Source: Candidatus Enterousia sp. (GTDB lineage Bacteria; Pseudomonadota; Alphaproteobacteria; Rs-D84). From it: DNA of 64,000 bases. Positions within the stretch are counted from its first letter, which is position 1. Every line of letters starts with the position of its first letter. This document shows, in pieces, positions 60,534-63,390 of the stretch. The notes beneath the pieces are model-generated. The model searched no databases, had not been told where the DNA came from, and saw nothing but the letters and a program-made list of their open reading frames with translations. Position numbers and translations under genes: made by a program. The stretch spans positions 11,635-75,634 of the forward strand of contig JAZTWM010000007.1 of the NCBI GenBank assembly GCA_045635825.1, read 5' to 3'.

Positions 60534-62267
60534 TTACAATGGCATCTTTACGCTTTCTTGCATCATTTCAACAAATGCATCCAGTGACATAGATTCCTGC
60601 TGTTCAACACCTAATCTACGCAATGTAACATTTTTGTCCGCCATTTCCTTTTCACCAACAACTGCGATAATTGGCGTTTTTGCCAACGACAATTCACGGA
60701 TTTTATAGTTCACCTTTTCATCACGCAAATCCGCACGTGCATTTACACCTGCGTCTCTCAATGCATTCACAGCCTCCATTGCATATTCTGCATGCTTTTG
60801 TGAAATTGGGGTAACAACCACAGGCTCTGGCGAGAACCACAAAGGCAAATTACCACCCGTTGATTCCAACAAGATTCCCATAAAACGTTCAATTGAACCC
60901 AACATTGCACGATGCAACATAATTGGACGATGTTTTTCACCATCTTCACCAACATAGGATAAATCGAATCGTTCTGGCAAATTCATATCCAACTGAACCG
61001 TACCGCACTGCCATACACGCCCCATAGAATCACGCAGATAATTGTCAATCTTTGGACCATAGAACGCCGCATCCCCTTCGGCAATTTCGTATTCAATACC
61101 ATTGGCATCCAAAGCATGTTTCAATGCACCTTCGGCCTTGTCCCAGATTTCATCTGACCCGATACGGAATTCAGATTCTTTTCTGGTTGCCAATTTCATG
61201 GTAATTTTATCAAAGCCAAACTTACCATAAATATCCTTAATAAAACGCAAGATTTTAACAACCTCTTCTTCCAACTGTTCTTCAGTACAGAAGATATGTG
61301 CGTCATCTTGTGTAAACTCACGCACACGCATCAAGCCTGACAAACCACCCGCTGCTTCATAACGATGCACCTTACCAAACTCTGCCATATACAGTGGTAA
61401 ATCCTTATAAGAACGCAGACCATGTCCAAACACCAACATACCACCTGGACATGACATAGGCTTAATACAGAACACTTTACCATCTTGGGTTTTACCAGAA
61501 TAGTTATGTTCACCATATTTTGCCCAGTGCCCTGATCTTTCCCACAAACATCTATCCATAACTGCAGGCGTTGAAATTTCTTGATAACCTGCTTTTTCCT
61601 GACGGGCACGAACATATTCAATCAAACGACGATACATTTTGTACCCTTTGTCATGCCAGAACACCGCACCTGGGGCATACTCTGGTTCAAAGTGGAACAA
61701 GTCCATATCTTTACCCAATTTACGATTATCACGCGCAGCCGCTTCTTCTTGCATTTTCAAGAACTCATCCAGTTCTTCTTTTGTTGCGAACGCATCAACA
61801 TAAATACGTTGCAACATTTTATTTTTTGAATCACCTTTCCAATATGCACCTGCAACGCTGCGGATTTTAAATCCATCACGTGGCAAATCTTTTGAACTTT
61901 CAACGTGTGGTCCACGGCACAAATCCGTAAAGTCACGGAAAGTATAGATAGATAAGGCTTCGCCTGCCGCATCATATTCATTCAACCATTCCATTTTATA
62001 TGGCTGGTCTGCAAAGATTTCTTTGGCTTCGTCCAGCGATACATTACGTTGTTCAAAGCGCCCATTTGATTTAATCAAATCACGCATTTCTTTTTCGATT
62101 TGTGCAAAATCTTCTTCAGAAAAACGATATTCTGTATCAAAGTCATAATAGAAACCGTTTTCAATTGCTGGACCACCCGCAAATTTAACCTCTGGGTGTA
62201 ATTTTTTAACTGCCGCTGCCATAACATGTGCCAGCGAATGACGCATCAATTCGATATCATATGCCAT
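60534..62267 (-). CDS. thrS: Threonine-tRNA ligase (lacks N-terminal TGS domain)
   Basis: RHSLAH, DLCRGPH, KPMSCP, GLMRVREFTQDDAH, AAFYGPK, HRA. Confidence 0.97.
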   Translation of the reverse strand: MAYDIELMRHSLAHVMAAAVKKLHPEVKFAGGPAIENGFYYDFDTEYRFSEEDFAQIEKEMRDLIKSNGRFEQRNVSLDEAKEIFADQPYKMEWLNEYDAAGEALSIYTFRDFTDLCRGPHVESSKDLPRDGFKIRSVAGAYWKGDSKNKMLQRIYVDAFATKEELDEFLKMQEEAAARDNRKLGKDMDLFHFEPEYAPGAVFWHDKGYKMYRRLIEYVRARQEKAGYQEISTPAVMDRCLWERSGHWAKYGEHNYSGKTQDGKVFCIKPMSCPGGMLVFGHGLRSYKDLPLYMAEFGKVHRYEAAGGLSGLMRVREFTQDDAHIFCTEEQLEEEVVKILRFIKDIYGKFGFDKITMKLATRKESEFRIGSDEIWDKAEGALKHALDANGIEYEIAEGDAAFYGPKIDNYLRDSMGRVWQCGTVQLDMNLPERFDLSYVGEDGEKHRPIMLHRAMLGSIERFMGILLESTGGNLPLWFSPEPVVVTPISQKHAEYAMEAVNALRDAGVNARADLRDEKVNYKIRELSLAKTPIIAVVGEKEMADKNVTLRRLGVEQQESMSLDAFVEMMQESVKMPL

Positions 62268-62354
62268 AATAAATACCTTCTTTGTTTTATATTAAAGTTT
62301 ATGTTTTTTGCTGTTTGATTATAAGATAGAAACGCGATTTATCGCAAATAGAAA

Positions 62355-62411
62355 TTACACCCCCAACGGGGTTGTAGTTGTTGTTGTAAAGATAATCTTA
62401 AACAAATCCAT
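62355..62411 (-). CDS. Putative thrS leader peptide MDLFKIIFTTTTTTPLGV
   Basis: ATG at 62411; ACA ACA ACA ACT ACA ACC run; TAA at 62355-62357, 87 nt upstream of thrS. Confidence 0.75.
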   Translation of the reverse strand: MDLFKIIFTTTTTTPLGV

Positions 62412-62418
62412 GAATACT

Positions 62419-62447
62419 ATGGTATTACTATCTTAATAAAAAATCAA
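62419..62447 (-). promoter_or_regulatory. Sigma70 promoter for the leader transcript, apparently leaderless
   Basis: TTGATT-N17-TACCAT-N7-ATG. Confidence 0.55.
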
Positions 62448-62473
62448 GCTATCTTTTTCCAAATTAAAAAAAT

Positions 62474-62545
62474 AAAAGATAATGGCACAGAATACGGGCG
62501 GGGGCGACAACGTAGTGTACAGAAGTTACATGAGGTTACCTACCC
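62474..62545. repeat. Palindromic repeat copy 3 (degenerate)
   Basis: AAAAGATAATGGCACAG...CGTAGTGTACAGAAGTTACATGAGGTT core; outer stem eroded. Confidence 0.75.
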
Positions 62546-62569
62546 AAAAACTTCATCAGGGGTAAAAAC

Positions 62570-62655
62570 AAAAGATAACTGCACAGATGCAAGTAAACCC
62601 GCAACCGTAGTGTACAGAAGTTACATGAGGTTGCGGGTTTGCTTGCAGATATGCC
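62570..62655. repeat. Palindromic repeat copy 4
   Basis: AAAAGATAA...TGCAAG..AAACCCGCAACC-GTAG-TGTA-CAGAAGT-TACA-TGA-GGTTGCGGGTTT.CTTGCA-GATATGCC. Confidence 0.88.
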
Positions 62656-62673
62656 TTTAGATTTTGTTTTTAT

Positions 62674-63390
62674 TTATGCTGCGGCTGTGAAAACCTTCTG
62701 CACATCATCATTTGCATCCAGTGCATCAACCAATTTTTCTAGTTTTGCATATGCTTCATCATCTAAATCCATCGGCATATTTGGAATCCATGTCAATTCT
62801 GCCTGTTCTGGTTCACCCAATTTATCTGCCAAATACTTCTGTGCAGTAATAAAATCTTCTGGTTTTGTTGTGATGATAAAGCCTTCCTCGGACGTTTCCA
62901 AATTGTCCGCATTTGCTTCCATAATAATTTCCATCATTTCATCTTCGGTCTTACCGATTGATGCTGGGTACATAATTTGACCGGCACGTGTAAACATAAA
63001 GACAACACTGCCCTCTTCGCCCATATTACCACCATTCTTGCCAAAGATATTACGAATTTCTGGCACTGTACGACGTGGATTATCAGTCAAAGCCTCTACG
63101 ATAACTGGCACCGCACCTGGACCATAACCTTCATAGCGTACCGCTTCGTAATTTTCTGTATTTGCACCTGATGCTTTTTCAATTGCACGTTTAATATTGT
63201 CATTTGGCATTGAATTTTTACGTGCTGTCAAAATTGCCAAACGCAGACGTGGGTTATTATCTGGATTTTTATCACCCAACTTTGCCGCCATTGTAATTTC
63301 ACGTGCTAATTTTGTAAACAAACCACTACGGGCTGCGTCTGCTGCACCCTTTTTGTGTTGAATGTTATGCCATTTACTGTGTCCACTCAT
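62674..63390 (-). CDS. yebC: YebC/PmpR family protein
   Basis: MSGHSKWHNIQHKKG, NPRLR, YEGYGPG, TDNPRRT, DDVQKV. Confidence 0.95.
   Translation of the reverse strand: MSGHSKWHNIQHKKGAADAARSGLFTKLAREITMAAKLGDKNPDNNPRLRLAILTARKNSMPNDNIKRAIEKASGANTENYEAVRYEGYGPGAVPVIVEALTDNPRRTVPEIRNIFGKNGGNMGEEGSVVFMFTRAGQIMYPASIGKTEDEMMEIIMEANADNLETSEEGFIITTKPEDFITAQKYLADKLGEPEQAELTWIPNMPMDLDDEAYAKLEKLVDALDANDDVQKVFTAAA

Follow-up and report, generated by a model that had tools for sequence, protein, structure and literature searches.

The thrS leader and its elements

The DNA analysed here (the window, 64,000 nucleotides, nt) belongs to a metagenome-assembled genome (MAG) of Candidatus Enterousia, an alphaproteobacterium of the order Rs-D84; the genome comprises 950,188 bases in 15 contigs and is 98% complete, with 41% G+C. 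The threonine--tRNA ligase (ThrRS) gene thrS lies on the minus strand of the window. It is preceded by a short upstream open reading frame (uORF) with a run of threonine codons, by two hairpins (A and B) and by two promoter-like elements (P1 and P2), an arrangement that we regard as a candidate leader-peptide sensor of charged tRNA-Thr (Table 1). The genus is assigned to the GTDB order Rs-D84, and its genomes are described as smaller than about 1 Mb and as missing amino-acid biosynthesis pathways (excerpts of PMC12306168). There is therefore no thr operon to control, which makes thrS the natural target for a threonine sensor. A search across the genome found thrS in a single copy; the genome has three tRNA-Thr genes, with the anticodons CGU, GGU and UGU. 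The Pfam domains of ThrRS are tRNA_SAD, tRNA-synt_2b and HGTP_anticodon; no TGS domain was found by the Pfam search.

The uORF reads ATG GAT TTG TTT AAG ATT ATC TTT ACA ACA ACA ACT ACA ACC CCG TTG GGG GTG TAA. Across the genome, 62 intergenic ATG-initiated uORFs with a run of at least three identical residues precede a gene, and only the thrS uORF has a run longer than four. Similarly, the motif ACNACNACCCCN{3,5}GGGG occurs at a single site in this genome. P1 is not listed by our consensus promoter scan, which had a threshold of 9/12 matches and against which P1 scores 8/12 by hand count; its support comes instead from its conservation. In 23 same-genus loci, a -35 TTGAYT, a -10 TAnnAT and the ATG are held in fixed register, with a gap of 7-10 nt (by eye) between the -10 box and the uORF start. 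Also by eye, TTG(A/C)-N16-17-TAnnnT lies 7-8 nt upstream of the uORF ATG in loci of other families (L027-L029), and a similar promoter arrangement lies 6 and 9 nt upstream of the ATG in L224 and L273. The uORF has no Shine-Dalgarno sequence, and its mRNA would be leaderless or nearly so, with translation starting on a leaderless message.

Hairpin A lies within the uORF itself. Its 5' arm consists of the final Thr codons and the CC of the Pro codon, and its 3' arm, GGG GUG UA, enters the stop codon; the ACCCC/GGGGU core alone has a folding energy of -8.4 kcal/mol. Together with the interrupted U tract UUUCUAUUU, hairpin A is listed as terminator-like by the consensus scan, in which three such sites were found against 0.4 expected, both hairpins being among them. 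The 73-nt stretch that holds both hairpins folds at -15.4 kcal/mol (z = -2.57), and 1 of 200 shuffled sequences was equally stable.

A preliminary description of this DNA had reported an 18-codon minus-strand reading frame with six Thr codons (ACA, ACT and ACC) ending 87 nt before thrS, a TTGATT-N17-TACCAT promoter 7 nt before its ATG, the two hairpins, a possible second promoter (TTGCGA-N18-TATAAT) and a ThrRS devoid of the TGS domain. The reading frame, both promoter sequences and both hairpins are present where it had placed them; the hairpins were folded with ViennaRNA, the register of the first promoter is conserved in the 23 same-genus loci, the second promoter is strongly conserved in sequence and spacing in 65 leaders of the genus, and the lack of TGS is borne out by Pfam.

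Conservation and possible expression of the leader

A uORF with a Thr run and the CCCC/GGGG hairpin was found before thrS in all 23 same-genus loci having upstream DNA; one further locus is cut at the gene start. Among additional loci with upstream DNA, 50 of 54 pass a filter for an ATG-initiated uORF with at least three consecutive Thr codons. Three of the four that fail have two neighbouring Thr codons immediately ahead of a retained hairpin, and the fourth, L087 (52% identical), has neither. In 70 unique genus-level leaders, Thr occupies the positions -1 to -6 before Pro in 70, 70, 65, 59, 54 and 54 cases, respectively, and positions -3 to -6 draw on all four Thr codons (ACA, ACT, ACC and ACG). 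The run is 4-7 codons long, and the N-terminal half of the peptide is variable, save for a tendency to Phe. Thr codons that are kept through synonymous change behind a free N-terminus form the pattern of codons read by a ribosome, and not that of a conserved peptide. Synonymous variation in the Thr-rich uORFs of orthologous thrS leaders had been set beforehand as a test of the leader; the same-genus loci display it, and so do leaders from other families and lineages.

Codon choice is different where the uORF enters hairpin A. The last Thr codon is ACC in 70/70 leaders, compared with 22% genomic usage, and the Gly codon is GGG in 70/70, compared with 16% of the Gly codons genome-wide. The CCCC and GGGG of the stem are invariant in 23 same-genus sequences, with a variable loop. 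Moreover, the hairpin is kept in six loci in which the stop codon falls inside the loop and the GGGG is untranslated (L027, L028, L209, L223, L224 and L273; for example, ACC CCU UAA GGGG). These observations point, on indirect evidence, to a constraint on hairpin A at the level of the RNA. The 16 nt that follow the first four G of the 3' arm contain 7-10 T (mean 8.6) in the 70 leaders.

Hairpin B is also conserved, since 61 of 65 genus leaders fold a hairpin from the same G, with a median share of equally stable shuffles of 0.02. The pairs are CG 59 and UA 2 at position 2, GC 52, AU 8 and GU 1 at position 3, and GC 28, CG 21, AU 6, UA 3, UG 3 and GU 1 at position 4, with compensatory changes at positions 2 and 3. 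The loops of both hairpins vary in sequence, that of A being mostly 4 nt long and that of B 3-9 nt. No conserved U tract was found behind hairpin B in the genus leaders. The preliminary description had cautioned that hairpin B is weak: the missing U tract agrees with this caution, while the covariation shows that it is not a chance hairpin. A role of hairpin B as a general second terminator was rejected, as the U-rich tail is seen in the window and in the closest relatives and not in many others, which have, for example, GCGCGCUAUAAUCAAAAAAC. Because hairpin B covaries, RNA from P1 must often run past hairpin A; otherwise there would be no selection on it as RNA.

P2 overlaps hairpin B, and its geometry is conserved despite the range of hairpin B loop lengths. 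In the 65 genus leaders, the spacer measures 17 nt in 52, 16 nt in 10 and 18 nt in 3, the -10 is TATAAT in 47, AATAAT in 15 and TAAAAT in 3, and the -35 is TTGCNN in 63 and TTGTGC in 2. We conclude from this pattern that the predicted P2 is a genuine second promoter, which probably gives basal thrS expression. With P2 conserved in this way, thrS is probably not transcribed through the leader alone.

Expression was followed in assembled metatranscriptome contigs (Logan), from which transcript starts, ends and levels cannot be read and which may include library DNA. A 510-nt contig of the bovine-gut metatranscriptome run X2 is 98% identical to the window (10 differences) and covers 62367 to 61858, running from the 3' arm of hairpin A and the U tract through hairpin B and P2 to the 5' untranslated region and the 5' part of thrS. 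It extends 56 nt beyond the start expected for P2 (about 62311). In run X3, a 309-nt contig (61980..62288) ends downstream of P2, and positions 62368..62682 are covered by no metatranscriptome contig examined. The X2 contig is a weak hint that RNA spanning P2 exists, and it is compatible with read-through from P1.

Of the 201 genomes of the order, this one included, 157 contain the motif ACNACNACCCCN{3,5}GGGG, at essentially one site each, and 11 contain its reversed pattern. By group, the motif is present in 140/151 genomes of the genus and in 149/171 of family f1, 1/4 of f2, 1/19 of f3, 0/1 of f4, 2/2 of f5 and 3/3 of f6. Of 25 loci from other genera and families of the order with sufficient upstream DNA, 18 have both uORF and hairpin; a 26th (f6) has only 36 nt upstream. 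The 18 comprise 13 loci of f1 (genera g11, g12, g13, g14, g16, g17, g18, g19 and g20), f2 g10, f3 g22, and f6 g6 and g9; no leader was seen in the upstream regions of g15 (3/3), two g12 loci, one g16 locus, f2 g2 and f4. Outside the order, a stricter motif matches 7 of 397 sampled Alphaproteobacteria, with about 29 genomes for the reversed control; two of the seven matches precede thrS (L223 and L224) and the other five lie inside long open reading frames. Among the best 28 thrS loci from a sample of 150 genomes outside the order, two have a Thr-run uORF (L273 and L274, the latter from the same genome as L224), and none was found in Pelagibacteraceae and other loci of the thrS homologue set. 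By this distribution, the predicted leader is ancient in Rs-D84 and extends to at least three further alphaproteobacterial lineages with small genomes, and it was not seen in most of the Alphaproteobacteria sampled.

The lack of TGS is not tied to the leader, since genomes of family f6 encode about 63 more N-terminal ThrRS residues and still have it. Within the order, 63-66 extra N-terminal residues were observed in f3 g3 (two of the three loci read), f6 and f2 g2, and two f3 loci resemble the TGS fold. The extension is absent in f1, f5, f2 g7 and g10, f3 g22 and one f3 g3 locus. In the three outside lineages with a Thr leader, ThrRS has short N-terminal extensions only.

Cognate-codon leaders at other synthetase genes

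The aminoacyl-tRNA synthetase genes of the genome were located with Pfam models and their upstream regions were read. Six genes besides thrS are preceded by a uORF rich in their own amino acid, namely ileS, hisS, trpS, cysS, lysS and metG (Table 1); the identities of these six genes were assigned separately. The ileS leader is preceded by a leaderless-type promoter and followed by GGGCGCAUAUGCGCCC and UUUUU, a strong GC hairpin (GGGCGC..GCGCCC) with U5. Its run of three to five Ile is present in 18/18 Enterousia loci, this genome included (IIII in 16), and was not seen in 10 loci from other families. In some species, the ileS leader lies directly behind a tRNA gene.

At hisS, 13 of 15 genus loci have a uORF containing HH (HHA in 12), whose His codons form part of the 5' arm of the hairpin CGCCC AUGC GGGCG (CACGCCC..GGGCG). 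This hairpin is followed by a conserved TTAGCA-N18-TATAAT (TAGCR and about N17 in relatives) and then by a further hairpin with a U5 tail. The trpS uORF ends in W-R-x-A-A before the stop codon in 4 of 15 genus loci and in W-R-V-V-A-D in 1, with one additional WW form. Alternative hairpins and GGGCUUUUAUUU were observed downstream of it. The cysS leader has 2 to 5 consecutive Cys codons in 13/17 genus loci, and the 3' arm of its hairpin GCAAAC..GUUUGC also supplies the -35 (TTGCAT) of a second promoter-like element. For lysS, the uORF accompanies a conserved attenuator with alternative hairpins (GUGCGACC / CGGACGCAC / GCGUCCG-U6). Finally, in four loci including this one, the metG mini-leader has a tRNA gene on one side and a strong terminator on the other, the latter 25 nt upstream of the metG ribosome-binding site.

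Some features recur among these leaders. The sensed codons of thrS, hisS and trpS are within the 5' arm of the first hairpin, and the uORFs of these three genes are leaderless; thrS, hisS and cysS have a promoter-like element directly behind the first hairpin (hisS and cysS by eye); and the ileS, lysS and metG leaders of this genome end in strong terminators. No cognate-codon uORF was seen in this genome before valS, leuS, proS, glyS, aspS, tyrS, argS, alaS, gluS, pheS and serS, genes named here from their Pfam family, length and N-terminal motifs and not by a family search. The roughly 200 nt before aspS (contig C7:94592-94800, minus strand) are GC-rich and look structured, with several possible hairpins, a U6 tract and no Asp-rich uORF.

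The agreement between codon run and downstream synthetase, found at seven genes, argues most strongly that these uORFs would sense charged tRNA. We raise, as a tentative proposal that may well not hold, that the synthetase genes of Enterousia and its relatives are run by minimal leader-peptide switches, each a compact sensor free of an antiterminator that perhaps toggles between a sensing promoter upstream and a basal one downstream. If this is true, the sign and kinetics of such a compact switch would differ from those of the textbook attenuator. The use of such leaders at seven synthetase genes in an auxotrophic, reduced genome would be a more notable finding than the thrS leader alone.

Upstream of the thrS leader, between yebC and P1, a 27-nt repeat (AACCTCATGTAACTTCTGTACACTACG) is present twice on the minus strand (window positions 62512-62538 and 62606-62632), and a 22-nt seed from it matches five sites in the genome. 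Four copies of the repeat are embedded in a longer palindrome, AACCCGCAACC...GGTTGCGGGTT, that has the look of a repetitive extragenic palindromic (REP) or miniature inverted-repeat transposable element (MITE) type sequence. The palindrome probably doubles as the yebC terminator.

Table 1. Coordinates of thrS, of its leader elements (window positions) and of the leaders at other synthetase genes (contig or locus positions).
Feature	Position	Strand	Description
thrS, threonine--tRNA ligase	62267..60534	minus	577 amino acids; TIGR00418, 682 bits; Shine-Dalgarno AAGG 62279..62276
Promoter P1	62419..62447	minus	TTGATT 62447..62442, 17-nt spacer, TACCAT 62424..62419; -10 ends 7 nt before the uORF ATG
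Leader uORF	62411..62355	minus	18 codons and TAA, MDLFKIIFTTTTTTPLGV; ends 87 nt before the thrS ATG
Thr run, codons 9-14	62370..62387	minus	ACA ACA ACA ACT ACA ACC
Hairpin A	62376..62356	minus	UACA-A-CCCC GUUG GGGG-UGUA; 8 pairs, one bulged A; -11.2 kcal/mol alone (ViennaRNA)
Interrupted U tract	62346..62354	minus	UUUCUAUUU, directly after hairpin A, within the tail AAUUUCUAUUU
Hairpin B	62345..62334	minus	GCGA UAAA UCGC, -4.2 kcal/mol, then UUUCUAUCUU; 5' arm begins at the G of the P2 -35
Promoter-like P2	62318..62347	minus	TTGCGA 62347..62342, 18-nt spacer, TATAAT 62323..62318; 10/12 consensus; about 50 nt before the thrS ATG
ileS leader	contig C7:153221-153253 (L113:3101-3133)	minus	MKQTTIIIIK, stop; 76 nt before ileS (1007 amino acids, TIGR00392)
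hisS leader	contig C6 (L114:265-324)	plus	MINKDFIFVILHHAHAGEY, stop; upstream of hisS
trpS leader	contig C1 (L115:1090-1146)	minus	MMNKTFIFSANHCWRIAA, stop; single UGG in hairpin arm GGCGG AUUG CCGCC
cysS leader	contig C1 (L116:274-312)	plus	MTVRFINFYCCR, stop; leaderless in this genome
lysS candidate leader	contig C1 (L117:284-313)	plus	MKRWIKRLK, stop; K-(K/R) uORFs in 15/15 loci
metG candidate mini-leader	contig C7 (L118:2067-2084)	minus	MRMHK, stop; MRMxx, stop, in 7/15 loci

Proposed control of thrS and comparison with known systems

We judge it likely, if far from certain, that the leader acts in cis on thrS as a leader-peptide sensor of charged tRNA-Thr. P1 would yield a leaderless mRNA whose first 18 codons are translated, and hairpin A with its U-rich tail would function, about 10 nt past the stop codon, as an intrinsic terminator or a site of pausing. 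Under scarcity of Thr-tRNA, a ribosome with its A site on Thr codons 3-6 would cover the 5' arm and block hairpin A, and RNA polymerase would continue through hairpin B into thrS. With the arm uncovered, hairpin A would form and P1 transcripts would stop just before P2, which would supply basal thrS transcription. Direct occlusion of the 5' arm would take the place of an antiterminator. When the RNA was masked to 12 nt past the A site and refolded, the core of hairpin A was intact for Thr codons 1-2 and gone for Thr codons 3-6. We infer that the uORF is translated, that P2 is used, that transcription would terminate at hairpin A and that stalling would raise thrS expression and, with these, the direction of the response and the step affected. 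The regulatory role proposed here is well supported by comparative evidence. Control of thrS by ribosome stalling at the Thr codons had been put forward in the preliminary description and is supported in part: the conserved Thr codons, the RNA-constrained hairpin and the six parallel synthetase leaders speak for it, with the reservations that no antiterminator was found and that P2 probably offers a bypass.

Several observations weigh against this mechanism. RNAalifold on 23 leaders gives the core of hairpin A only, and the ribosome-masked folds give a weak AU helix only, with no conserved alternative; the caution of the preliminary description that any antiterminator is weak is thus confirmed. 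RNAalifold also finds no covariation in hairpin A, whose stem never varies among these leaders, and support for this hairpin is indirect for that reason. Its U tract falls short of the uninterrupted U5-U8 tracts seen at other terminators of the genome. A ribosome stalled at Thr codons 1-2 leaves hairpin A free in the masked folds. The stop codon directly adjoins the stem, the end of the U tract is about 10 nt further on, and structures of coupled ribosome and polymerase place at least about 22 nt between the ribosomal P site and the polymerase active site. With this spacing, the ribosome cannot clear the hairpin while the polymerase is on the U tract, and a fast ribosome following closely would therefore block the hairpin too. 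The simple model does not explain termination under Thr sufficiency, and the opposite sign would be physically possible. In addition, P2 is so strongly conserved that thrS may be expressed mainly without the leader; g15 (3/3), f4, f2 g2 and three f3 g3 loci have none, and a leader missing from several genomes of the order is dispensable; and the sole hint from expression is one assembled metatranscriptome contig. The level of control may be termination, interference between P1 and P2 or mRNA stability, among which sequence alone does not decide.

Other pairings were considered in the search for an alternative structure. A helix of UGUAA (stop codon) with UUAUA (P2 -10), which encloses hairpin B in several leaders, was judged to be a by-product of two AT-rich motifs. 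A possible base-pairing between the Thr run and the ribosome-binding site of thrS (GGUUGUU between the Shine-Dalgarno and AUG in several relatives) was dropped by eye, as the window site AAGGUAUUUAUUAUG does not fit. A sigma-dependent pause at a P2-like element would come after the decision at hairpin A.

The timing of the ribosome is turned to use in a sensor of opposite sign, similar to that of pyrBI and possibly combined with a promoter switch, which we regard as unlikely. Here a ribosome that keeps pace would cover hairpin A and allow read-through, and delay at the first Thr codons would let hairpin A form; P1 transcripts would end at the P2 -35, thrS would then be transcribed from P2, and Thr shortage would keep P1 polymerases from crossing P2. 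Such a scheme agrees with a uORF that spans the whole of hairpin A with its stop codon at the 3' foot, with the survival of the hairpin core when Thr codons 1-2 are masked, with an expected termination point at the P2 -35 and with the promoter-like elements seen by eye right after the first hairpin at hisS and cysS. Positive feedback on a synthetase would, however, be physiologically odd unless P2 overcompensates, and read-through P1 transcripts hold an intact thrS ribosome-binding site and would thus be productive too. The cognate codons at seven genes suggest homeostatic sensing, and the covariation of hairpin B implies that read-through RNA matters. The same covariation in the absence of a conserved U tract, together with the weak U tract behind hairpin A, would suit post-transcriptional control, in which a ribosome stalled on the Thr run shields the leaderless P1 transcript from decay that depends on the 5' end, as in the ermC-type stabilisation of mRNA by a stalled ribosome. 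Hairpin A would then be no regulated terminator and hairpin B would be a stabilising stem after processing; the stall site lies about 40 nt or less from the 5' end in the leaderless layout, and the timing problem is avoided. We hold this to be decidedly unlikely, as nothing in the sequence demands it, an invariant GC hairpin followed by a U-rich tail is more in keeping with a terminator, and the ileS, lysS and metG leaders end in strong terminators.

It is very improbable, in our view, that P1, the uORF and hairpin A form a unit of their own for an 18-residue peptide, with thrS transcribed from P2 alone. P1 and the terminator-like hairpin do bracket the uORF, with P2 following, and in L207 and L208, which have no leader, a P2-like TTGCAA-N-TAAAAT after the terminator of the upstream gene appears, by eye, to drive thrS. 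Yet the N-terminal half of the peptide is not conserved, its C-terminal residues track the nucleotides of the hairpin and not a peptide motif (the loop residue is L, A, V, K, F, T, W, S, C, P or M), and it ends at Pro where the stop lies in the loop. The association with thrS persists across the order and in three further lineages, and the amino-acid run matches the downstream synthetase at seven genes. An RNA that senses a protein or a tRNA directly would follow the thrS controls of E. coli and Firmicutes, the E. coli operator being a stem-loop by the ribosome-binding site with a loop that mimics the tRNA-Thr anticodon loop. We find an element of this kind scarcely credible at the Enterousia locus. 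No Rfam family, T-box and Thr_leader included, was found by cmscan in 61800..63000 (E <= 10), where the best match was noise from a microRNA model (E = 0.32). The variable loops contain no conserved anticodon-like or specifier loop, and the leader is too short for a T-box. An operator of the E. coli type was rejected, the loops being short and variable and both hairpins lying more than 50 nt from the Shine-Dalgarno.

The control of thrS is usually described as autorepression by ThrRS in Proteobacteria (E. coli) and as T-boxes in Firmicutes, and E. coli pheST and thrLABC are classical cases of leader-peptide attenuation. The Enterousia leader, read as a sensor of charged tRNA-Thr, shares with the latter a short uORF with a run of cognate codons before the regulated gene, and the target of pheST is also an aminoacyl-tRNA synthetase. 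In the pheST and thrLABC leaders, a uORF led by a Shine-Dalgarno is combined with a pause hairpin, an antiterminator and a terminator whose U run is clean, whereas that of Enterousia has one hairpin overlapping the codons, no antiterminator that we could find, a leaderless uORF and an internal promoter. In E. coli pyrBI, the leader reading frame passes through the terminator hairpin, and a ribosome following closely blocks the hairpin with no antiterminator. The Enterousia uORF similarly covers the whole of hairpin A, with its stop codon overlapping the 3' foot. The difference is that pyrBI senses uridine triphosphate through polymerase pausing and has no run of cognate codons, where the Enterousia leader has Thr codons.

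Leader-peptide control of synthetase genes is already known. In the excerpts available, the autoregulation of E. coli ThrRS is mentioned in passing and histidine leader peptides are said to precede two hisS paralogues in bacilli (PMC2965389), and pheST attenuation is cited and classical attenuators are predicted before Streptomyces trpS and leuS (PMC1262725). Ribosome profiling of Caulobacter crescentus, likewise an alphaproteobacterium with leaders before synthetase genes, revealed small leader coding sequences on the trpS and ileS mRNAs, for which the available sections give neither mechanism nor codon content, and thrS does not occur in the main text of that article (PMC4117421, in part). 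In the literature searched, a scope that left out most subscription journals, no report of a Thr leader peptide before proteobacterial thrS was found. If the proposed control holds, an uncultured, genome-reduced gut lineage would use a Thr leader peptide in place of autorepression or a T-box, and the same idea at at least six other synthetase genes. This would offer insight into the way in which auxotrophic bacteria might monitor each amino acid by the charging of its tRNA, and a test case for a stalled ribosome that regulates termination by direct occlusion alone. Leader reading frames this short may be missed, or called hypothetical, by automatic MAG annotation.

The compact architecture has its parallels in Actinobacteria. 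In actinobacterial ilvB leaders, the regulatory codon runs overlap a candidate terminator hairpin and poly-U with no obvious antiterminator, although biosynthetic operons are targeted; in S. coelicolor, ilvB was unaffected by replacement of the candidate codons, which is a warning for the Enterousia thrS leader too (PMC1262725, in part). In Streptomyces lividans, thrL (MKRVRPFLETTPGFVPAR) is leaderless, lies before thrS and has one hairpin and no clear U-rich terminator, and leuS, trpS and alaS also have leaders (PMC8079986, in part). As far as the available sections of that article go, the Enterousia trpS leader ending in W-R-x-A-A resembles the S. lividans trpL2 peptide, and thrL shares with the Enterousia thrS leader a leaderless uORF of 18 codons in which Thr codons are followed by Pro and Gly. 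By the same sections, thrL belongs to the Actinobacteria, has two Thr codons only, was annotated by RNA-seq in one strain and has neither a comparative or functional test nor a second promoter described, while the Enterousia leader has a run of 4-7 Thr, with codons inside a hairpin conserved across many species.

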